DNA of 43,220 bases from a virus (Duplodnaviria > Heunggongvirae > Uroviricota > Caudoviricetes). The stretch's first letter is position 1. Every line of letters begins with the position of its first letter. Both the position numbers and the translations under genes were made by a program. This document shows, piece after piece, positions 1-41,718 of this stretch. The stretch lies in the IMG/VR virus record IMGVR_UViG_2563366806_000003, one strand, 5' to 3'. The notes beneath the pieces were generated by a model that was not told the DNA's origin, searched no databases, and saw nothing but the letters and a program-made list of their open reading frames with translations.

Positions 1-708
1 ATGTGGGTCAATAAGTATATTGACGATTGCACTGATGAGGATTTAAACGATCGTGACTTTATTGCATCAGTTGTTGACCGGGCTATTTTTCATTTCGCGA
101 TTAATAGTATATGTAATCTTGGGGATAATAAAGATGCAATGCCCATTGAACAATGTACTTTTGATGTAGAAACTAAGAATGACCTTCCCTCCACGGTTCA
201 GCTATTTTATGAGGAATCTAAGGATAATGAACCTTTAGCGAATATACATTTTCAAGCAATAGGTTCTGGTTTTTTAACGTTTGTTAATGCCTGCCAGGAA
301 CATGATGACAACAGCTTAAAATTATTTGCTTCGCTGTTAATTTCACTTTCATATTCTAGTGCCTACGCAGATTTATCAGAAACAGTGTATATTAATGAAA
401 ATAATGAGAGCTACCTGAAAGCTCAGTTTGAAAAATTATCTCAACGTGATATGAAGAAGTACCTGGGAGAGATGAGGCGTCTGGCTGATGGGGGAGAAAT
501 GAATTTTGATGGCTATCTGGATAAGATGTCACATCTGGTGAATGAAGGAACGCTCGATCCTGATATTTTAAGCAAAATGCGAGATGCTGCACCACAATTA
601 ATTAGCTTCGCGAAGTCGTTTGACCCAACCTCAAAGGAAGAGATTAAAATACTTACAGTCACTTCTAAATTAATTTATGATTTGTTCGGGGTTAAATCGG
701 AGAAATAA
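1..708 (+). CDS. yjbM: Uncharacterized host protein, 235 aa (YjbM-like), outside the prophage
   Basis: Complete ORF starting at base 1 and followed by an intrinsic terminator; position upstream of dusA and the 235-aa length match my recollection of E. coli K-12 yjbM. Protein sequence itself not independently recognised. Confidence 0.5.
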   Translation: MWVNKYIDDCTDEDLNDRDFIASVVDRAIFHFAINSICNLGDNKDAMPIEQCTFDVETKNDLPSTVQLFYEESKDNEPLANIHFQAIGSGFLTFVNACQEHDDNSLKLFASLLISLSYSSAYADLSETVYINENNESYLKAQFEKLSQRDMKKYLGEMRRLADGGEMNFDGYLDKMSHLVNEGTLDPDILSKMRDAAPQLISFAKSFDPTSKEEIKILTVTSKLIYDLFGVKSEK

Positions 709-748
709 TATGTGAAGTTCTTCGATAGTATGGAAGGCATTATATAAA

Positions 749-778
749 AGGACCCAATATTTATTGGGTTCTTTTTTC
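749..778 (+). terminator. Rho-independent terminator after the yjbM-like gene
   Basis: Hairpin gacccaata/tattgggt followed by a T-run (cttttttctc). Confidence 0.6.
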
Positions 779-1070
779 TCTATCAATGCTATTAGCAGGG
801 AGATATATCACCAGAGTTTAATGTGTGATTTTTTATTTATCGTCGAACCTGGATTGTTTATCATTGGCCTTAACAAAGTTAACGGCTAATAAGATTATTT
901 CCATCACTTCGTGAGAGCTTCATGCCTTGAGAGGATCTCAATTTTCTTTTGCAATGAGACAGGCGCTTCCTGTTGTTATGGTATAGTACCTCGCTATTGA
1001 GCCTCCTGAACAGTGATGCTGAATAACATAACCCCATGATATATCGATAAAATAATCTCTACATTTGAAA

Positions 1071-1193
1071 ATGCACGGTAATTCTGAAATGCAAAAAATC
1101 AACCAAACCAGCGCAATGCCTGAAAAAACTGACGTTCACTGGAGTGGTCGGTTTAGCGTTGCACCAATGCTCGATAGGATGTACCGTTTTTGA
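1071..1193 (+). pseudogene. dusA: Displaced native 5' fragment of dusA (first ~35 codons, then out-of-frame phage DNA and stop); attL side
   Basis: Translates MHGNSEMQKINQTSAMPEKTDVHWSGRFSVAPMLD, paralogous to the N-terminus of the intact dusA at 41807; similarity ends after atgctcga (1167-1174). Confidence 0.8.
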
Positions 1194-1318
1194 AAAACAA
1201 GTAGTTATACACTTTGTGGGAGCCTATTGGGAACCCGGTGTTTTCATTTCAAGGTGTAATCCATGCCGGGCATCAGAATGAGATATAATGAGATTTTTAG
1301 TGTTCCGCTTGAGAGTCT

Positions 1319-1855
1319 ATGATGCTTACCCTAGACGAGATAGGTCAATCTGTACGTAACAATATCCAGTTGATTATTGATCATGTCGGCTTACCTCTTG
1401 CTGTTGGTCCGCTCAGTGATGATGATTACAAGATTCTGTGTGGTGGCTATGGTGAGCTTGAATGGGACTATGCGTTAAGCACCTATGGCAACTCCAGAGA
1501 AAAGTATGAGTTCTGCATAAAACTTGTTCAGCAAGGTCGGGTTCAGGGAATACCATCAGGAGCAGCAATTTGTGTTTATGGGGTTGAAGAAAACATCTTT
1601 CGTATCCATATGATCGAAAGGTTTTCTAGAGAAGATGAATCTCACCCATTGAAAGGGCGCATGGTTTTACTCACTCTTATGAGTGCTTTTATATTTTGTA
1701 AAGCTGTTGAATGTAAAGTTGTCCACATTGTAGAGCCAGTACCAGAACTGGTGCAGTATTACGAGTCTTTTGGTTTCCGCATGGAACAGTGCGGTTATGT
1801 GATGTCTGCAGTCATTGATGAGCTGCAGGATATCTTTCTTAAATTTGCTCAGTAG
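1319..1855 (+). CDS. Hypothetical cargo protein, 178 aa, weak GNAT-fold-like C-terminus (…YYESFGF…)
   Basis: AT-rich ORF just inside attL, opposite in orientation to the adjacent phage early genes; function not recognised. Confidence 0.5.
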   Translation: MMLTLDEIGQSVRNNIQLIIDHVGLPLAVGPLSDDDYKILCGGYGELEWDYALSTYGNSREKYEFCIKLVQQGRVQGIPSGAAICVYGVEENIFRIHMIERFSREDESHPLKGRMVLLTLMSAFIFCKAVECKVVHIVEPVPELVQYYESFGFRMEQCGYVMSAVIDELQDIFLKFAQ

Positions 1856-2051
1856 GTATAGACGAGAAGGGTCTACAAATTGTAGGATACCCGTCCAGAT
1901 TACCTTAAAGGTACATCTATGGCAGTCGTTTTGTGCTTAAACTACTAAGAAACGATGTCACCAATCGACATGATCGATTGGCATAAGTTAGCGAAACAAG
2001 CTAGCTTTAAAGAGAGGGTTAGAGACGCCTTTACTGTCTCGGGAGTTTTCT

Positions 2052-6719: not shown

Positions 6720-7125
6720 AAGGTCGGTTAGTTTCTCCACAAAACAGAGAAGAACACCTGCGGTGACTGCCGCCCGGATGGATTGGGTTATGAGCCCGTC
6801 GTCCGGTGATGCTCTTCTCTGTTTTGTAAAAAGGACGGTACCAGCCGGAAGCAATGGTACAAGCTGGTACCGCCAAGACTACACACAGCATAAAGTTGTG
6901 GTGCCGGGTGCCTCCCGGTGCCTGGCGAAGGTTGCACACCAGGCGGGTGGGTATCCACAGAAGGTCGACTGTCAGCCTCAACCTTAACCCGCGTGCGCTG
7001 AGCCGCATTCACCACAACGCTAAGGATTCTCTCTGGTTGAAAATACTTAGCTGTTATGTGCCTGTCTTTTCACCACTTCAGGCTCGGTGGTATCCTTTTA
7101 AGCCCGTATACATAAAAGGAAAATC
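6720..7125 (-). other. GC-rich, highly structured non-coding region (candidate ncRNA or cis-regulatory RNA structure)
   Basis: 15-bp perfect inverted repeat caaaacagagaaga (6739-6753 / 6813-6827), second stem ggtaccagc/gctggtacc (6837-6871), further GC-rich palindromes; ORFs here on both strands have non-protein-like composition. Confidence 0.3.
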
Positions 7126-7127
7126 AA

Positions 7128-7373
7128 ATGACTTTTGATGAAAAAGAACTTGATAATGCAATTAATAAAATCATCGTAACGTCGCTCTTTTCCTGTCTCA
7201 GCGACACTCAGCAGAAACAGTTCTACGAATCGGCTTTCAACATGATCGAGCGTTGTTGTTTCTGCGATGCCGACGAGTTACCTGAAAAAATCAGGAAACA
7301 GTTGGCTGATGCTCTTCGAGTGCGACTTTCTGACCAATTTTCTGAAATGTGCTCTCCGAATTTGGACAAATAG
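7128..7373 (+). CDS. Hypothetical small protein, 81 aa
   Basis: Strong RBS (aaaaggaaaatcaaATG), protein-like sequence; overlaps convergently with the 7291-7566 ORF, so only one may be real. Confidence 0.35.
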   Translation: MTFDEKELDNAINKIIVTSLFSCLSDTQQKQFYESAFNMIERCCFCDADELPEKIRKQLADALRVRLSDQFSEMCSPNLDK

Positions 7374-7566
7374 AAAAAGGCCATTTCCATTCAGGGTCTG
7401 ATGGAAATACTTCAGCCTGTTCCAAAGCACGGCGTAAAGAGAATACAACTCCAGCCATAATCTGATGTTTCCCATTGGTCCAGCTATCGCCGCTCTGATC
7501 TACAGGAGCGGCTATGTCGTATGACCAAACGACTTCACCACTATTGTTTAAAATCTGGACTTTCAT
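7291..7566 (-). CDS. Hypothetical protein, 91 aa, first ORF downstream of the leftward early promoter
   Basis: GGAGG about 12 nt upstream; position equivalent to the first pL gene; its 3' part overlaps the + ORF and contains a terminator-like hairpin. Confidence 0.35.
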   Translation of the reverse strand: MKVQILNNSGEVVWSYDIAAPVDQSGDSWTNGKHQIMAGVVFSLRRALEQAEVFPSDPEWKWPFSICPNSESTFQKIGQKVALEEHQPTVS

Positions 7567-7684
7567 TTTGTTCTTTAACCTCCAGATACGGGCGTTTAAT
7601 GGCCCCGCCGAACAGCTCTTTTCCGCAATAGCTGCAATGTCTTTCGCGCATCAGCCTGCGCATTCACCACAACTCTAAAAACAA

Positions 7685-7737
7685 ATGTAGGATATCCAAC
7701 ATGTGAGTGTCAAGAGTTTATGTTGGTTATCCTACAT
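7685..7737 (-). promoter_or_regulatory. Left operator/promoter region (OL/pL-like): two 18-bp palindromic operators flanking a TTGACA -35 on the minus strand
   Basis: atgtaggatatccaacat (7685-7702) and atgttggttatcctacat (7720-7737); same operator/-35 arrangement as the rightward promoter at 8488-8516. Confidence 0.55.
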
Positions 7738-7753
7738 AAAAAGATAGGCTCAT

Positions 7754-7779
7754 AAAAAAACCGGGGATACCCCGGTTTT
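7754..7779 (-). terminator. Intrinsic terminator downstream of the repressor gene
   Basis: ccgggg-atac-cccgg hairpin with a T-run on the minus strand. Confidence 0.65.
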
Positions 7780-7799
7780 GCGATAGTGAGGAAGATGTG

Positions 7800-8453
7800 T
7801 CAAAAATCCATTATTACTTGTTTGACAAGACCAACTATTCTGCAGTTCTCACCGCATTCAATAGTTTTATAGTTAGGATTTAGTGGGACGAGATACCTGT
7901 TCGGCCAGTCCTCAACAAATTTTTTGAGTGTCGCTTCTTGCCCACCATTGATATGGGCAACAACGATTTTTCCGTTAATACACTCTGTATCAATAATATC
8001 TGGCTCTACGATAACGATAGAACCTTCTGGTATCGATGGTGAGCCGAGGGGATTGGTCATTGAATCACCACGGACCCGTAGTGCAAATGCCATTTCTGAT
8101 ACAAGGGCGGTAGTATAAACCCACTCTTCAGCATCTTCTTTCCTGACACCAGGCTCCGTCATTGTCCATGAACCCGCCTGAACCCACGAGATGAGGGGGA
8201 CTTTTTTAACTGCGAATATTTCAGGTTTTAGATTTATCTTTGGTTCAGGCGAGCCTTTTCCGCTAACAAGCCACAGAGGATCGCATTTAAGTGCGTTGGC
8301 TAGGGCTTGAAGGTTGGCTCCATTTGGTTGGTAGTCGTCCTTTTCCCATCCAGTAACCGTGACACGGTTCACACCAGTCAAATCAGCCAGTGCTTGTTGT
8401 GTCAGGTTCAGTTCTTTTCGCCTTTGGCGAATACGATCACTCATGTTCATCAT
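7800..8453 (-). CDS. CI-like prophage repressor (N-terminal XRE-type HTH, C-terminal S24 LexA-like peptidase domain)
   Basis: …LNLTQQALADLTGVNRVTVTGWE… HTH; C-terminal …LRVRGDSMTNP… and …KKF… S24 self-cleavage motifs; divergent from the Cro-like gene with operators between. Confidence 0.85.
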   Translation of the reverse strand: MMNMSDRIRQRRKELNLTQQALADLTGVNRVTVTGWEKDDYQPNGANLQALANALKCDPLWLVSGKGSPEPKINLKPEIFAVKKVPLISWVQAGSWTMTEPGVRKEDAEEWVYTTALVSEMAFALRVRGDSMTNPLGSPSIPEGSIVIVEPDIIDTECINGKIVVAHINGGQEATLKKFVEDWPNRYLVPLNPNYKTIECGENCRIVGLVKQVIMDF

Positions 8454-8476
8454 GTAGGCAATCCTACCACATGCCC

Positions 8477-8517
8477 ATGTAGGATTCTTGACATTGGTAT
8501 GTTGGATATCCTACATT
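8477..8517 (+). promoter_or_regulatory. Right operator/promoter region (OR/pR-like)
   Basis: TTGACA at 8488-8493; 18-bp palindromic operator atgttggatatcctacat (8499-8516) over the -10 region; degenerate half-site copy at 8477-8494. Confidence 0.55.
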
Positions 8518-8548
8518 TCTGCTTAACGTAATTTAACGGGAGACAGAA

Positions 8549-8746
8549 ATGCGGAAATCCGACGTGATTAATTATTTCGGCGGAGTTTGTAAAACCGCCG
8601 AAGCCCTAGGTATTAAGCATCCGTCTGTTTCAGAGTGGCCTGAGATTATTCCTGAAGGCCGAGCGTACCAGTTAGAAAAAATTACTAACGGGAAACTGAA
8701 AGTTGACGTGTCTTTATATCAAAAGACTAACAGTGCTGCGGCATAA
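8549..8746 (+). CDS. Cro-like DNA-binding protein
   Basis: 65-aa protein divergent from the repressor; …GGVCKTAEALGIKHPSVSEW… HTH typical of Cro/YdaS-like proteins. Confidence 0.7.
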   Translation: MRKSDVINYFGGVCKTAEALGIKHPSVSEWPEIIPEGRAYQLEKITNGKLKVDVSLYQKTNSAAA

Positions 8747-8773
8747 AAACACCACAGAAATGAGGAATTAACC

Positions 8774-9358
8774 GTGGGTAAAGAACCTGAATGGAAAGTT
8801 GATAAACAACCAGCATGGCTGGTGGCAGCAATACGAAGAACGATTGCTGATTTACCTCATGGCTATGAGGAAGCAGCAGAAATTCTTGGTTTGTATAAAT
8901 CTGATGATATCACCCCAGCAAAAGATCAATTGCATAACAGACTGCGTAGCGGTGGGGATCAAATTTTTCCACTTGAGTGGGCCATGGTTTTACAGGATGC
9001 CAGTGGTACCAGGCATGTAACAGATGCAATAGCCCGTCGTAGTAATGGGGTGTTTGTGCCGCTGGTGGTCATTGATGACATTGACAATGGTGACATTAAT
9101 CAGCGGCTGATGGAGTCAATAGAATGGATTGGCAAGCATTCCCAGTACTTACGCAAGGCAACTGCTGATGGAGTTATTGACCAAGCTGAGCGTGAGCAAA
9201 TCGAAGAGAACAGCTACCAAGTAATGGCGAAGTGGCAGGAGCATTTAACACTGTTATTTCGTGTTTTTTGTGCGCCGGAAAAGAGTAACGCCCGCGAGTG
9301 TGCAGCTCCGGGCGTCGTGGCGTCGATTGCTTCTGGTTGTGGAGAAACTAACGCATGA
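8774..9358 (+). CDS. CII-like / YmfL-like early regulatory protein
   Basis: 194-aa ORF directly after cro; size and position match e14 YmfL / CP76-type CII-like regulators (recalled). Confidence 0.45.
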
Positions 9359-9693
9359 ACAGTTTAACAACACACTACCGTCGCTCGCAACTGATTGCGC
9401 TTCCTGTACCGGGTGGAAAAGCGAAGGTGGAGTATTGCTATGCAGTGAATGTACCAGGTGACAGGGAAATTGTAACCCACAGCTTTGCAGAGTGGGCTGT
9501 GGGGGATTTCAACCGGCAGAAGGAGACAGTCCTTTGCGACAAGTTAACCGCTGGTTCAAAGATCACTACGGAGTGCCCGTCAGAGTCATTCGTTGGGAAC
9601 CGGAAACACAACGGGTTATCTACCTCCGCGAAGGCTATGAGTATGAGTGCTTCAGCCCGCTCGAACAGTTTCGTCGTAAATTCAGGGAAATAG
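9355..9693 (+). CDS. Hypothetical early protein, 112 aa (YmfM-like by size and position)
   Basis: ATGA start/stop overlap with the upstream gene; C-terminal third is low-complexity and overlaps a protein-like alternative frame (9492-9713). Confidence 0.4.
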
Positions 9694-9702
9694 AGGTCGG
9701 TC

Positions 9703-10644
9703 ATGAGCACTAAATTAACCGGCTATGTATGGGATGGTTGCGCAGCGTCAGGCATGAAATTATCCAGCGTGGCAATTATGGCCCGCCTGGCTGATTTCAG
9801 TAATGACGAAGGTGTGTGCTGGCCATCAATTGAAACCATTGCCCGCCAGATTGGCGCGGGGATGAGTACCGTCAGAACGGCTATCGCACGGCTGGAAGCA
9901 GAAGGCTGGTTAACGCGTAAGGCGCGTCGCCAGGGTAACCGCAATGCGTCGAATGTTTATCAGCTTAACGTTGCGAAGCTTCAGGCAGCGGCATTTTCTC
10001 AACTGTCAGATTCTGACCAGTCAAAATCTGACGCATCAAAATCTGACCCGTCAAAATTTGATGCGTCGAAATCTGGCAAAAAAGCGGGTTTTCACCCGTC
10101 AGAATCTGGCGGGGATCCGTCAGTAAAATCAAAACATGATCCGTCAGATAAAAAACCTTCTCGTCCGGACGCTTCGCAACCGGACACGCAGACGGCTGAA
10201 CAGGATTTTTTAACTCGCCATCCTGATGCGGTTGTATTCAGCCCTAAAAAACGCCAGTGGGGGACGCAGGATGATTTGACCTGCGCACAGTGGCTCTGGA
10301 AAAAAATCATCGCCCTGTACGAGCAGGCCGCCGAATGTGACGGCGAGGTGGTTCGTCCCAAAGAACCGAACTGGACAGCCTGGGCAAACGAAATTCGCCT
10401 GATGTGTGTGCAGGATGGTCGTACTCATAAACAAATCTGCGAGATGTACAGCCGCGTCAGTCGCGATCCGTTCTGGTGCCGTAACGTGCTCAGCCCGTCG
10501 AAGCTGCGGGAAAAATGGGATGAGCTTTCCCTGCGCTTATCGCCGTCCGTCAGCACATACACAGAAAAACGTGAAGATCCGTACTTCAAATCCAGTTACG
10601 ACAACGTGGACTACAGCCAGATCCCGGCAGGATTCAGGGGGTGA
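9703..10644 (+). CDS. Replication initiator (O-like, N-terminal HTH) with internal iteron-encoded repeat region
   Basis: N-terminal HTH (…MSTVRTAIARLEAEGWL…); central SKSD/PS repeats encoded by iterons at 10005-10160. Confidence 0.65.
   Translation: MSTKLTGYVWDGCAASGMKLSSVAIMARLADFSNDEGVCWPSIETIARQIGAGMSTVRTAIARLEAEGWLTRKARRQGNRNASNVYQLNVAKLQAAAFSQLSDSDQSKSDASKSDPSKFDASKSGKKAGFHPSESGGDPSVKSKHDPSDKKPSRPDASQPDTQTAEQDFLTRHPDAVVFSPKKRQWGTQDDLTCAQWLWKKIIALYEQAAECDGEVVRPKEPNWTAWANEIRLMCVQDGRTHKQICEMYSRVSRDPFWCRNVLSPSKLREKWDELSLRLSPSVSTYTEKREDPYFKSSYDNVDYSQIPAGFRG
10005..10160. repeat. Putative replication origin iterons inside the initiator gene
   Basis: At least 7 direct repeats of about 15 bp (tcaaaatctgac / ccgtcagaatctg variants) followed by an A-rich stretch. 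Confidence 0.5.
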
Positions 10645-11135
10645 TCATGAGTCTTTTGAATGAAGTTCAGAAATTCATTGAAGCCCATCCGGGGTGTACT
10701 TCCGGAGACATTGCGGATGCTTTTGCAGGTTACTCACGGCAGCGCGTTCTGCAGTCAGCAAGCAAGTTACGTCAGAGTGGGCGTGTGGCTCACCGTTGTG
10801 AAGGAGATACACGCAGACATTTCTCGCGCCTGACTGAGAGAGCGCAGGAGCCGGAACCACAACCAGTTTGTGAAACCAGACCTGTGCGCAAGTTCTATGT
10901 CGGCACTAACGCCCCCCGGGTGATTTTGTGCCTGACCCGCCAGGCTGAAGAACTGGAGTCGAGGGGCTTATACCGTCGTGCTGCAACGGTGTGGATGGAG
11001 GCATTCCGTGAAAGCCACTCCCAGCCAGAACGAAACAATTTTCTGGCGCGTCGTGAACGGTGTTTACGGAAAAGCAGCAAGCGCGCTGCATCGGGTGAAG
11101 AGTGGTATCTGTCAGGGAATTACGTGGGGGCTTAA
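10641..11135 (+). CDS. PerC-family-like regulatory protein with N-terminal extension
   Basis: C-terminal …AEELESRGLYRRAATVWMEAF… matches the PerC signature as recalled. Confidence 0.45.
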   Translation: MIMSLLNEVQKFIEAHPGCTSGDIADAFAGYSRQRVLQSASKLRQSGRVAHRCEGDTRRHFSRLTERAQEPEPQPVCETRPVRKFYVGTNAPRVILCLTRQAEELESRGLYRRAATVWMEAFRESHSQPERNNFLARRERCLRKSSKRAASGEEWYLSGNYVGA

Positions 11136-11461
11136 TGACTACGTTAACTCAATGCCAGCAGCAGGTGCTGGATATGCTGATTTCTTATCAGAAAGAACGT
11201 GGCTTCCCGCCAACCAATCAGGAGGTGGCAACCATGCTGGGATACCGTTCAGTGAATGCAGCGGTGGAGCATCTTCGCGCACTGGAGAAAAAAGGCGTCA
11301 TCACGATAAAGCGTGGCGTGGCCCGGGGCATCACGCTTCATACCGCGGTGAAGGACGACGACAGCGAGGCGGTCGGGATTATCCGCGCACTGCTTGCCGG
11401 TGAGGCAAACGCCAGGCTGCGTGCAGCCCACTGGTTACATGAGAGGGGCCTGAAAGTATGA
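11135..11461 (+). CDS. LexA N-terminal DNA-binding-domain-only protein (winged HTH, no S24 peptidase domain)
   Basis: LTQCQQQVLDMLISYQKERGFPPTNQEVATMLGYRSVNAAVEHLRALEKKGVITIKRGVARGITL aligns residue-by-residue with the E. coli LexA N-terminal domain; protein ends after about 108 aa. Confidence 0.65.
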   Translation: MTTLTQCQQQVLDMLISYQKERGFPPTNQEVATMLGYRSVNAAVEHLRALEKKGVITIKRGVARGITLHTAVKDDDSEAVGIIRALLAGEANARLRAAHWLHERGLKV

Positions 11462-11847
11462 AGCTAATACTGCCTTTTCCGCCCAGCGTGAACACGTACT
11501 GGCGACACCCCAACAAAGGGGCGCTTGCAGGTAAGAGCCTGATAAGCGCGGCGGGGCGAAAATTCCAGAGCGCAGCGTGTGCAGCCATCATTGAGCAGTT
11601 ACGTCGTCTGCCGAAACCAACGTCGGCACCAGCTTCAGTGGAGATCGTGTTGTTTCCTCCGGATAACCGGCTTCGCGATCTGGACAACTATAACAAGGCG
11701 CTGTTTGACGCCCTGACCCACGCGGGTGTGTGGGTGGACGACAGCCAGGTGAAAAGAATGCTGGTGGAGTGGGGGCCGGTTATCCCGGAAGGGAAGGTCG
11801 AAATCACTATCAGTAAGTACGAGAAAACGGCGGGTGCAGCCGCCTGA
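11458..11847 (+). CDS. rusA: RusA Holliday-junction resolvase
   Basis: MKLILPFPPSVNTYWR… and …RDLDNYNKALFDALTHAGVWVDDSQV… are hallmark RusA motifs. Confidence 0.9.
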   Translation: MKLILPFPPSVNTYWRHPNKGALAGKSLISAAGRKFQSAACAAIIEQLRRLPKPTSAPASVEIVLFPPDNRLRDLDNYNKALFDALTHAGVWVDDSQVKRMLVEWGPVIPEGKVEITISKYEKTAGAAA

Positions 11848-15045: not shown

Positions 15046-16098
15046 ATGAAAAATACTGTAAAAATAAACAGTGTTGATTTAATCAACGCTGATTGCCTGC
15101 ATTTTATTCAGTCCCTGCCTGATGATTCCATTGACCTGATTGTTACCGATCCGCCTTACTTCAAGGTGAAACCTAACGGTTGGGACAATCAGTGGAAAGG
15201 GGACGAAGATTACCTTAAGTGGCTGGACCACTGTCTGGCCCAGTTCTGGCGGGTGTTGAAACCTGCCGGAAGCCTTTACCTGTTCTGTGGGCATCGCCTG
15301 GCATCTGATATTGAGATCATGATGCGTGAACGTTTCAACGTGCTTAACCATATCATCTGGGCGAAGCCGTCCGGACGTTGGAATGGGTGTAATAAAGAAA
15401 GTCTGCGCGCATATTTTCCTGCCACAGAGCGCGTTCTGTTTGCTGAACATTACCAGGGGCCATATCGCGGCAAAAGTGACGGCTATGCGGCAAAAGAAAG
15501 GGAACTCAAACAGCACATAATGGCACCGCTGATATCGTATTTCAGGGATGCTCGTGCCGAACTGGGTATAACGGCAAAACAAATTGCCGAAGCCACAGGT
15601 AAGAAAAATATGGTTTCCCACTGGTTTGGTGCCAGTCAGTGGCAGTTGCCGAATGAGGCTGACTATCGGAAGTTACAGGCACTGTTTTCCCGTATAGCGG
15701 CAGAGAAGTTTCAGGAACAACAACTGGAACAACCACACCACCAGCTGGTGGCATCTTATGATTCACTGAATCGCAAATATTCTGAATTGCTGGATGAGTT
15801 TAAATCTCTCCGGCGCTATTTCTCCGTATCAGTTTCCGTGCCTTATACCGATGTCTGGACGCATAAGCCCGTTCAGTTCTATCCGGGTAAACATCCGTGC
15901 GAGAAACCGGCGGATATGCTCCGGCAAATAATCAATGCCAGTAGTCGACCTGGTGATCTGGTTGCTGATTTCTTTATGGGATCCGGTTCCACAATAAAAG
16001 CAGCAATGGCGCTGGGGCGTCGGGCGTTAGGTGTTGAACTTGAGTCAGAGCGGTTTAATCAGACGGTGAAAGAGGTAAGTGAACTGGTGGGGAAATAA
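15046..16098 (+). CDS. Orphan DNA N6-adenine/N4-cytosine methyltransferase (beta-class)
   Basis: DPPY motif (…IVTDPPYF…) near the N-terminus and FxGxG (…DFFMGSGST…) near the C-terminus; no adjacent restriction endonuclease. Confidence 0.8.
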   Translation: MKNTVKINSVDLINADCLHFIQSLPDDSIDLIVTDPPYFKVKPNGWDNQWKGDEDYLKWLDHCLAQFWRVLKPAGSLYLFCGHRLASDIEIMMRERFNVLNHIIWAKPSGRWNGCNKESLRAYFPATERVLFAEHYQGPYRGKSDGYAAKERELKQHIMAPLISYFRDARAELGITAKQIAEATGKKNMVSHWFGASQWQLPNEADYRKLQALFSRIAAEKFQEQQLEQPHHQLVASYDSLNRKYSELLDEFKSLRRYFSVSVSVPYTDVWTHKPVQFYPGKHPCEKPADMLRQIINASSRPGDLVADFFMGSGSTIKAAMALGRRALGVELESERFNQTVKEVSELVGK

Positions 16099-40310: not shown

Positions 40311-40559
40311 TTAGTGAACAAACCACTCGTCAGCAGATTCCCAGGTATCTTTCAGAGTCTCCTGAACAAAAGTTTTTGCAGAATCCTTATCTGCGGTGCG
40401 TGTAACAGAAAGGCCATCATTGCTGGTGGCTTTTACTAACACCTCAACATCGTCATAACGCTTACTGATGCGTCGGGTTAATTCTTCCTTTAACGCATCC
40501 ACAGCACCGGTTGGCATTTTAGTCATTTTTTCTTTGGCTATGCAGATTTCAATACGCAT
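40311..40559 (-). CDS. dinI: DinI-family protein
   Basis: MRIEICIAK…, and C-terminal …[15 protein letters not shown]… match host DinI; two LexA boxes immediately upstream. Confidence 0.85.
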
Positions 40560-40572
40560 AAAAGTCCCTCCA

Positions 40573-40620
40573 TACTGTGTTTGTATACAGCATTATTTTT
40601 AACTGTATGGATAAACAGTG
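40573..40620. promoter_or_regulatory. Two tandem LexA (SOS) boxes upstream of the dinI-like gene
   Basis: tACTGTgtttgtatACAGca (40573-40592) and aaCTGTatggataaACAGtg (40601-40620), both CTGT-N8-ACAG. Confidence 0.7.
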
Positions 40621-41718
40621 TCAAGAGGTCTTATTTCTGCTCCTTTGGAGCTCTTCAAAACGATTATGTAAAGATTTCGGATACAGTTCGGTATATACCT
40701 GCCATAGCACGTTTAATGAACGATGCCCTGTAACTTGGGCGACTTCCTCAATACTAAAACCAGCCTCAAATAAGCGACTTGCCCCTTCTCTACGCAAATC
40801 ATGGTATCGCAGATCCTTAATACCTAATTTGCTTCTTACTCTCTGAAATCCCGCAGTAACAGAAGTGCTGTTATATGGAAAAATGAATTCCGATTTTTGG
40901 GGCTGTCGTTGGACGATATCCCAGGCTTCCCCAAGCAAGGCTACTTTCATGTGGTTGCCTTCCTTTTTGCGTGGATCTTTCCTGTCTCTTACGAGTATAG
41001 ATTTTTGTTCCTGGTCGAGATCTTCCCATCGTAACCGGCATACTTCTCCGATTCGCATACAGGACCATACAGAAAATTTGAGGATATCAACGAACGGAAT
41101 TTTTGAGCATTTATGAGTAGATCGTTGTTGAAGGCCTGCAATGAGCATGTCCAGTTCATCAGATGCTGGTCTACGATTACGACGGTTTGATTTACCAATC
41201 AAACCAAGTTTAAGTAGATATGGGCGAGCGCTTTTCGCCGGGTTTGATGTGTAATTAATTCCGTATACAGGTTTGGCCGCATCCAGAACACTGCCAAGAT
41301 AACTAACATCGTGGCTGACTGTTGCAGGACCTGCACCAGCGTTGTTTCTTAGCCTGCAATGTTCAATTACGTCATTTTCTGTCAGTTCAGATAGTTTGAT
41401 CGCGGAGATGTCACTATCCATAAGCAGTTCCAGCACATATCTTTTAGTACGGCCTGCTTTACCTCCGGCATTTGGGTCATTTAAATATTTGTGTAGTAAG
41501 TCACGGACTGTAAGTCCGTCAACTGCATTTGATGATGGAATACCATATAGATCTAATTCCATCACTTTCTGTGTGCCCCATGTTTTGGCATGAGCATGTT
41601 TAGGGAATGTTTTGCTTTCCCTGTAAGTGATAACACCTTTTTCTTTGATAATCACATTACAGCGATAGCGTGGTGTGCCATCGGATTTTAGTCGTTTCTC
41701 TATGTTATAGTACGCCAT
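40621..41718 (-). CDS. int: Tyrosine integrase (dusA-specific type)
   Basis: 365 aa with C-terminal catalytic region (…HDLRREGASRLFEAG…VTGHRSLNVLWQVY…); adjacent and divergent to dusA. Confidence 0.9.
   Translation of the reverse strand: MAYYNIEKRLKSDGTPRYRCNVIIKEKGVITYRESKTFPKHAHAKTWGTQKVMELDLYGIPSSNAVDGLTVRDLLHKYLNDPNAGGKAGRTKRYVLELLMDSDISAIKLSELTENDVIEHCRLRNNAGAGPATVSHDVSYLGSVLDAAKPVYGINYTSNPAKSARPYLLKLGLIGKSNRRNRRPASDELDMLIAGLQQRSTHKCSKIPFVDILKFSVWSCMRIGEVCRLRWEDLDQEQKSILVRDRKDPRKKEGNHMKVALLGEAWDIVQRQPQKSEFIFPYNSTSVTAGFQRVRSKLGIKDLRYHDLRREGASRLFEAGFSIEEVAQVTGHRSLNVLWQVYTELYPKSLHNRFEELQRSRNKTS

Follow-up and report, generated by a model that had tools for sequence, protein, structure and literature searches.

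A single phage-encoded stand-alone LexA DNA-binding domain (DBD) has been characterized: gp6 of GIL01, a tectivirus of Bacillus thuringiensis, is a truncated LexA homologue that activates the late promoter P3 and binds GaCACAnnTGTGaC via Lys38 (PMC6182141). A parallel comes from engineering, where the LexA DBD becomes an efficient repressor once any dimerizing module is fused to it; in LexA two-hybrid systems and LEVI/LexRO, a heterologous dimerizer at the C terminus makes the repressor (PMC7102963). Here we describe a 108-residue protein made of a LexA DBD and a conserved helical tail, encoded at positions 11135–11461 of a 43,220-nucleotide stretch (the window; IMG/VR virus record IMGVR_UViG_2563366806_000003) that contains a lambdoid Escherichia coli prophage. 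Like gp6, which appears early in the lytic cycle following DNA damage, it is a stand-alone phage version of the domain, and the same timing is expected of it; its identity to the host LexA DBD is comparable (~50%, against 44% for gp6). By its description gp6 is a winged helix-turn-helix only, without a helical tail, and comes from a Gram-positive tectivirus; the conserved tail, a nearly LexA-like recognition helix and a place in SOS-controlled cassettes set the present family apart. Two forms of LexA itself are also instructive. Non-cleavable (Ind−) LexA gives RecA-proof DNA binding of the kind proposed below, with the full C-terminal dimerization domain retained. The natural cleavage fragment LexA(1–84) binds weakly and is degraded by ClpXP, whereas the phage protein carries a conserved tail of its own. 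Engineered fusions use LOV domains or test proteins at this position; the phage counterpart is a natural 35-residue hairpin, for which dimerization is our prediction.

The protein (MTTLTQCQQQVLDMLISYQKERGFPPTNQEVATMLGYRSVNAAVEHLRALEKKGVITIKRGVARGITLHTAVKDDDSEAVGIIRALLAGEANARLRAAHWLHERGLKV) is differentiated into a LexA-type winged helix-turn-helix, a short linker and a helical hairpin:

11135–11461, + strand: LexA-DBD gene, 108 codons, ATG at 11135, TGA at 11459–11461 (stop included)
11135–11338, + strand: LexA-type winged helix-turn-helix, residues 1–68, three helices and a two-strand wing (PF01726, 1lea, AlphaFold2 model, 3jso)
11252–11290, + strand: recognition helix, residues 40–52 (VNAAVEHLRALEK), with S39 directly before it; N41, A42 and E45 kept, E44V and P40V exchanged
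11339–11353, + strand: flexible linker, residues 69–73, predicted local distance difference test score (pLDDT) <50 at 71–73
11354–11458, + strand: helical hairpin, residues 74–108, helices 74–88 and 93–103 in the AlphaFold2 model, kept in the family

Homologues all begin MTTLT or similar at the equivalent of the ATG at 11135. PF01726 (LexA_DNA_bind) matches residues 1–65 across its whole length (profile 1–65 of 65, E=2.9e-19), the score of 69 bits exceeding the gathering cut-off of 23.7 bits over the entire domain model. The best solved-structure match is the N-terminal domain of E. coli LexA (1lea, E=6.3e-16), aligned without gaps from 2–70 on 2–70. Homology continues through the hinge, with full-length LexA structure entries aligning phage residues 2–90 to LexA 2–86, and the best PDB and NCBIfam matches are both gammaproteobacterial LexA. 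In an AlphaFold2 model derived from 23 sequences of the family (mean pLDDT 83), the DBD has helices at 6–22, 28–35 and 40–52 and strands at 56–58 and 66–68; superimposing this domain on the LexA–DNA complex 3jso gives a root mean square deviation of 1.1 Å over 68 residues, at ~50% identity. No match to Peptidase_S24 was found in any library scanned, and with rusA starting at 11458 neither a protease domain nor a decayed remnant of one would fit. The NCBIfam LexA equivalog (TIGR00498) scores 70.7 bits, below its cut-off of 110.95, and covers only profile positions 1–91 of 203; the C-terminal S24 peptidase/dimerization domain with its Ser119/Lys156 dyad, the mark of LexA proper, is missing. A preliminary description of the locus had proposed a phage-encoded LexA DBD lacking the S24 domain, and profile searches bear this out, placing the similarity far beyond chance. 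Its assertion that the recognition-helix region (quoted as YRSVNAAVEHLRALEKKGVI, residues 37–56) matches that of host LexA stands for S39, N41, A42, E45 and the wing R64-G65-I66, and falls at E44V and P40V. Four of the five base-contacting residues of E. coli LexA (Ser39, Asn41, Ala42, Glu44 and Glu45; PMC3091678) are kept.

The 35-residue hairpin, which went unmentioned in that description, is conserved down to 40% identity, following the pattern EAxxLLRALxxGExxARxRAIxxLxxRG with A, A, L and G invariant. A PDB profile search and a Pfam scan with the tail alone returned nothing significant. Two independent hidden Markov model (HMM) alignments pair the tail stretch ALLAGE (window 11375–11404) with VAAGE at the LexA cleavage site, from which we take the first part of the tail to share ancestry with the stretch of LexA that spans the hinge and cleavage site. 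Because both alignments run through that stretch, the protein looks like LexA 1–91 followed by 17 new residues. The local structure appears to differ from that of E. coli LexA, where the Ala84-Gly85 cleavage site is on an extended loop docking with the active site: the phage hinge region is predicted to be helical and to run into a new second helix. The cleavage-site stretch shares this helical prediction, and most members of the wider family lack its A-G; for both reasons we dropped the idea that the tail A-G is a working cleavage site cut in trans. The amphipathic hairpin is predicted with confidence and looks too small to fold on its own. On the model, it may be a dimerization module, and is probably what makes a lone DBD work. 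Such a tail may also serve as a compact natural dimerizer for LexA-based genetic tools.

The gene is real, conserved, widespread and already annotated, and thus less novel than was first implied. RefSeq holds an identical copy (WP_000210152.1, ‘LexA family transcriptional regulator’), and phrog_362 (‘transcriptional repressor’, ~106 residues) matches at full length (E=4.2e-59, residues 1–108 on profile 1–106 of 106). The 1.2-kb PerC–LexA-like–RusA segment has matches in 2691 of 5426 complete E. coli genomes, about half, at 90–100% identity. The gene is present in SfV (orf42), SfII, SfIV, cdtI, mEp460 (gp46), mEp390 and the Shiga toxin (Stx) phages Stx2a, Stx2c and Stx2k, a set that takes in the Stx2a/Stx2c phages of O157:H7 and serotype-converting Shigella phages; the protein is 95–100% identical to its counterparts in SfV, mEp460, SfII, cdtI and Stx2a/Stx2c. 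Proteins sharing this tail are also encoded in Citrobacter, Salmonella, Cronobacter, Atlantibacter, Klebsiella, Enterobacter and Hafnia, and stand-alone LexA-DBD proteins are frequent among predicted viral structures (BFVD). In distant pairs the proportion of nonsynonymous differences (pN) is 0.20–0.39 against a saturated synonymous proportion (pS) of ~0.75, and close pairs give a ratio of nonsynonymous to synonymous rates (dN/dS) of 0.09–0.54. As far as sequence tells, the gene is under purifying selection and functional. Literature searches returned no functional study of the family, only catalogue mentions; a survey of Stx phages lists it as pham 237 (PMC8136144).

The host element has an SfV/Mu-type contractile tail and is integrated next to dusA, with a gene set of CI, Cro, CII, O-like protein, RusA, Q, lysis, head and tail functions and an integrase adjoining dusA. 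PADLOC returned no defence-system membership. The features that bear on expression are these:

7800–8453, − strand: CI repressor, HTH_3 plus Peptidase_S24 (RecA-cleavable type)
8488–8517, + strand: pR-like promoter TTGACA-18-TACATT, among the CI operators
8549–8746: Cro, followed by a CII-like gene (Pfam)
9703–10644: O-like replication protein (Pfam)
10641–11135, + strand: PerC-family (YfdN-like) gene, directly upstream, its TAA stop overlapping the LexA-DBD ATG (TAATG)
11458–11847, + strand: RusA Holliday-junction resolvase gene, directly downstream, its ATG overlapping the LexA-DBD TGA stop (ATGA); KilA-N and then DUF968 follow (Pfam)
about 13.7–14.4 kb: Q, placed by offset from the related prophage of E. 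coli O19:H7 730V1 (L001)

The only good promoter-like site upstream on the + strand is that at 8488–8517, with none directly before the LexA-DBD gene, and pR is therefore the presumed source of the transcript. CI would hold the operon, including the LexA-DBD gene, off in the lysogen. The gene thus appears to belong to the early-right, nin-region-like set that is switched on by CI cleavage or on infection, and, in this lineage, it is not autoregulated by SOS boxes of its own as E. coli lexA is. Coming from a CI-repressed pR operon, the protein should have no say in the threshold for induction, since it can act only in an induced or newly infected cell; the earlier suggestion that the phage uses it to tune its own induction has to be narrowed to the time after the switch has flipped. 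Two clusters of ATGTAGGATATCCAACAT-type palindromes (7685–7737 and 8477–8516) flank cI and are likely the OL-side and OR operators. Iteron-like inverted repeats (GTCAGATTCTGAC, GTCAAAATCTGAC and GACGCATCAAAATCTGAC) lie inside the O-like gene at 10005–10067, coinciding with an SKSD/SKFD peptide repeat, and probably mark the replication origin. Compared over window positions 1–2000 and 7100–9400, the element and that of 730V1 differ in the immunity region and left end and are identical around the gene, which is typical lambdoid mosaicism.

We scanned for LexA sites with a matrix derived from 25 SOS boxes of E. coli, which serves as a lead and is not a curated set. Fifty shuffles of the sequence never scored above 18.2 bits on this scale, whereas three window sites, each an exact CTGT-N8-ACAG palindrome, reach 23.2, 21.7 and 21.0 bits:

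15054–15073: SOS box, 23.2 bits, TACTGTAAAAATAAACAGTG, at codons 4–9 of an N6/N4 DNA methyltransferase gene (15046–16098); candidate target
40573–40592 and 40601–40620: pair of SOS boxes, 21.0 and 21.7 bits, in the promoter of the dinI-like gene; candidate targets
40311–40559, − strand: dinI-like gene (PF06183, E=1e-19)

The two boxes upstream of the dinI-like gene that the preliminary description had pointed to are confirmed, their exact palindromes starting at 40575 and 40603. The promoter (40560–40625, − strand; TTGACA-17-TAAAAT) has one box filling its spacer and the second just past the −10 element over the start region, and by its sequence it is a textbook LexA-locked promoter. The methyltransferase gene, a late-region gene with this LexA site inside its start, sits between Q and the lysis genes, and SfV, mEp460 and E. 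coli 730V1 have an identical box at the corresponding position. Across four gene-carrying phages, exact CTGT-N8-ACAG occurs 16 times where 2.4 are expected from mononucleotide shuffles, which leave codon bias uncontrolled.

To place the gene in its family we read the gene context of eleven further lineages, which fall into two architectures. In the first (class A: the window, L005, L007, L008, L010, L018 and L020), the LexA-DBD gene directly follows replication, PerC, Dam or C5-methylase genes, RusA lies downstream (directly in most lineages) and there is no SOS box upstream. The second (class B) belongs to a sister subfamily of 118–135 residues with an N-terminal extension, found in Enterobacter, Klebsiella and three further lineages:

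L014 (Klebsiella) 7385–10243: class B cassette
L017 2893–7186: class B cassette
L012 9560–12413: class B cassette
L021 5561–8195: class B cassette
L022 4907–7666: class B cassette

All five class B lineages have a near-consensus SOS box (20.9–26.8 bits) overlapping a promoter 0.4–1.5 kb upstream of the gene, and a terminator-like hairpin precedes that promoter in L012 and L021, the two that were read for it. In three of the five, a further gene lies between box and LexA-DBD gene: that for DinI in Klebsiella, for a complete RecA in L017 and for part of RecA in L022. The family keeps company with other modulators of RecA and SOS. The order then runs phrog_1813 (77 residues), LexA-DBD, phrog_1212 (66 residues; absent from L021), RusA (absent from Klebsiella), DUF968 and Q, with an unannotated open reading frame in place of Q in some loci; Q itself may be LexA-controlled in such a cassette. 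Because the L012 repressor is a helix-turn-helix protein without S24, phrog_1813 could be an SOS-controlled antirepressor. RusA lies within ~0.7 kb downstream in all lineages examined except Klebsiella L014–L016, where DUF968 comes directly next. The SOS-box wiring of class B ties the family into the SOS circuit, with expression when LexA falls, whether via CI cleavage or directly.

The reading that we favour, tentatively and at somewhat below even probability, is that the protein is a RecA-insensitive surrogate of LexA made while host LexA is being cleaved. Transcribed with the pR operon, it would be produced only after cleavage of the S24-type CI or on infection, and would therefore appear at the moment of host LexA destruction. 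Its N-terminal winged helix-turn-helix would bind CTGT-N8-ACAG-type palindromes much as LexA does, the C-terminal hairpin taking over the dimerizing role of the LexA catalytic/dimerization domain. Since it has no cleavable domain, the protein should lie beyond the reach of activated RecA. Repression could then be re-imposed on LexA-controlled promoters, those of the phage dinI-like gene, the box in the methyltransferase gene and the host SOS genes among them, and LexA-controlled functions of rival elements would be affected too. What the sequence shows is a conserved gene for a LexA-type DBD without a protease, its place in the early-right operon and the SOS boxes of the prophage; from these we infer SOS-box binding, dimerization through the tail and a physiological effect. 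Should the protein rebind SOS boxes, induced prophages would come equipped to shut down the host DNA-damage response again, with consequences for SOS mutagenesis and persistence, for the rivalry among co-resident prophages and for the release of Shiga toxin after antibiotics.

Several observations weigh against a surrogate of this kind. The contact residue Glu44 is Val here, and in an alignment of 29 family members with E. coli LexA none of the 29 has Glu at this position, where V, A, T, N, S, F, L and Y are found. Most members have Glu or Asp at position 45 and some have G, T, L or I, and the 44/45 pair varies by lineage (VE, AE, AD, ND, FE, LT, LL, FI and AG). Pro40 is replaced by Val in the window protein and varies in the family; residues 40–42 are those altered in the altered-specificity mutant LexA408. 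In three lineages with the class A gene arrangement, L005 (Citrobacter), L008 and L010 (Cronobacter), the 10 kb around the gene contain no SOS box, although host SOS boxes would still be available to such lineages. Finally, in the one precedent, gp6, 44% identity to the host LexA DBD goes with reading a palindrome other than that of LexA and with activating transcription (PMC6182141).

These points feed a second reading: a phage-specific, LexA-derived regulator with an operator of its own in each lineage, serving phage promoters during lytic growth as a repressor or, like gp6, an activator. We regard this as the main rival, only slightly less probable than the surrogate. The helix changes by lineage at positions 42–45, Glu44 being lost family-wide, on a background in which S39 and the wing R64-G65-I66 never vary and N41 and A42 hardly do, a pattern of diversifying specificity on a conserved scaffold. 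Divergence is greatest in the helices of class B (AAAEH, AVLLH, AALTH, TVFIH and YAAYEH), and in Klebsiella (LL), L017 (LT) and L021 (FI) both acidic residues are lost, yet these genes stand behind canonical SOS boxes. This argues that the boxes serve host LexA and need not be read by the phage protein, and the drift at 44/45 beside canonical boxes speaks for lineage-specific operators over a fixed host box. The constant nin-like place before RusA–DUF968–Q, over 40–100% identity, likewise suggests a phage-internal job. On the other side, neither shared palindromes nor nearby inverted repeats yielded a candidate operator. Palindromes common to six independent lineages (perfect 4+4 and 5+5, spacers 2–12) amounted to composition-driven noise, and the short inverted repeats near the gene were only CI operators and origin iterons. 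Variant half-sites CTGG and CTGC, single-base changes of CTGT, were enriched in four phages and were dropped as candidates, as the examples seen fall in coding sequence with GC-rich spacers and the counts leave CTG/CAG codon bias uncontrolled. An activator would find no obvious vacancy, Q already serving lambdoid late transcription, and the subfamily of the window retains four of the five LexA contacts. Judged by the contact residues, that subfamily looks largely LexA-like, and the family overall looks like a scaffold with drifting DNA specificity. Were an operator of its own the answer, the early programme of lambdoid phages would contain a regulator so far unrecognized, and nature would supply a case of LexA-domain specificity evolving on a fixed scaffold.

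A stronger version of the LexA surrogate, unlikely though far from negligible in our estimate, is a phage-borne off-switch for SOS, in which the uncleavable mimic, made only after cleavage of host LexA, would silence the host SOS regulon again before RecA activity has ended. Its targets would include SOS toxins, mutagenic polymerases, the lysis genes of colicins and, in rival prophages, antirepressors under LexA control. For the sister subfamily, a phage DinI or RecA placed with the LexA mimic in a single LexA-controlled cassette would give a built-in SOS pulse. With its segment in about half of complete E. coli genomes and the gene present in Stx2a phages, a switch of this kind would shape the antibiotic-induced SOS response, mutagenesis and the induction of Shiga-toxin phages.

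We think it improbable that the protein acts mainly through protein contacts or in DNA transactions and not in transcription, for example with its tail binding a host or phage partner (the RecA filament, LexA, RusA or ClpX) or with the protein targeting recombination functions to particular DNA. The tight, conserved coupling to rusA and DUF968 (HNH-like), with recA and dinI in some lineages, would fit such a role, as would a tail that is conserved yet without a known match. Synteny in lambdoid nin regions, however, is often historical and not functional, no evidence points to any partner, and the (near-)invariance of S39, N41 and the wing R64-G65-I66 is what a sequence-specific DNA binder would show. 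Still weaker is a decaying remnant of a captured lexA with no present function: this would suit a protein resembling LexA residues 1–91 plus a short foreign end, with both HMM alignments crossing the hinge and cleavage stretch, but is close to refuted by conservation, the gene being intact in thousands of genomes and at least eight enterobacterial genera at 40–100% identity, with its tail conserved and pN far below pS.

Further SOS-like sites came to light in gene-carrying phages. Four related ones have a near-perfect SOS box (24.7–26.4 bits) inside the cI coding sequence, ~210 nucleotides from its start (L001 17588–17607, L003 31970–31989, L004 7725–7744 and L007 4836–4855), which may mark an internal LexA-controlled promoter or a roadblock; the window CI is of another immunity type, without a cI-internal box. 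A one-base variant of the methyltransferase box precedes the L021 methyltransferase (8739–8758), and Cas1-like and AcrVA2-like proteins adjoin that gene (9794–11390) in a prophage with a P0189 homologue. In phiSTEC1575-Stx2k (L004 167–290), a DUF4065 (Panacea-type) gene at one end of the prophage is closely preceded by three SOS-like boxes (16.5–21.2 bits).

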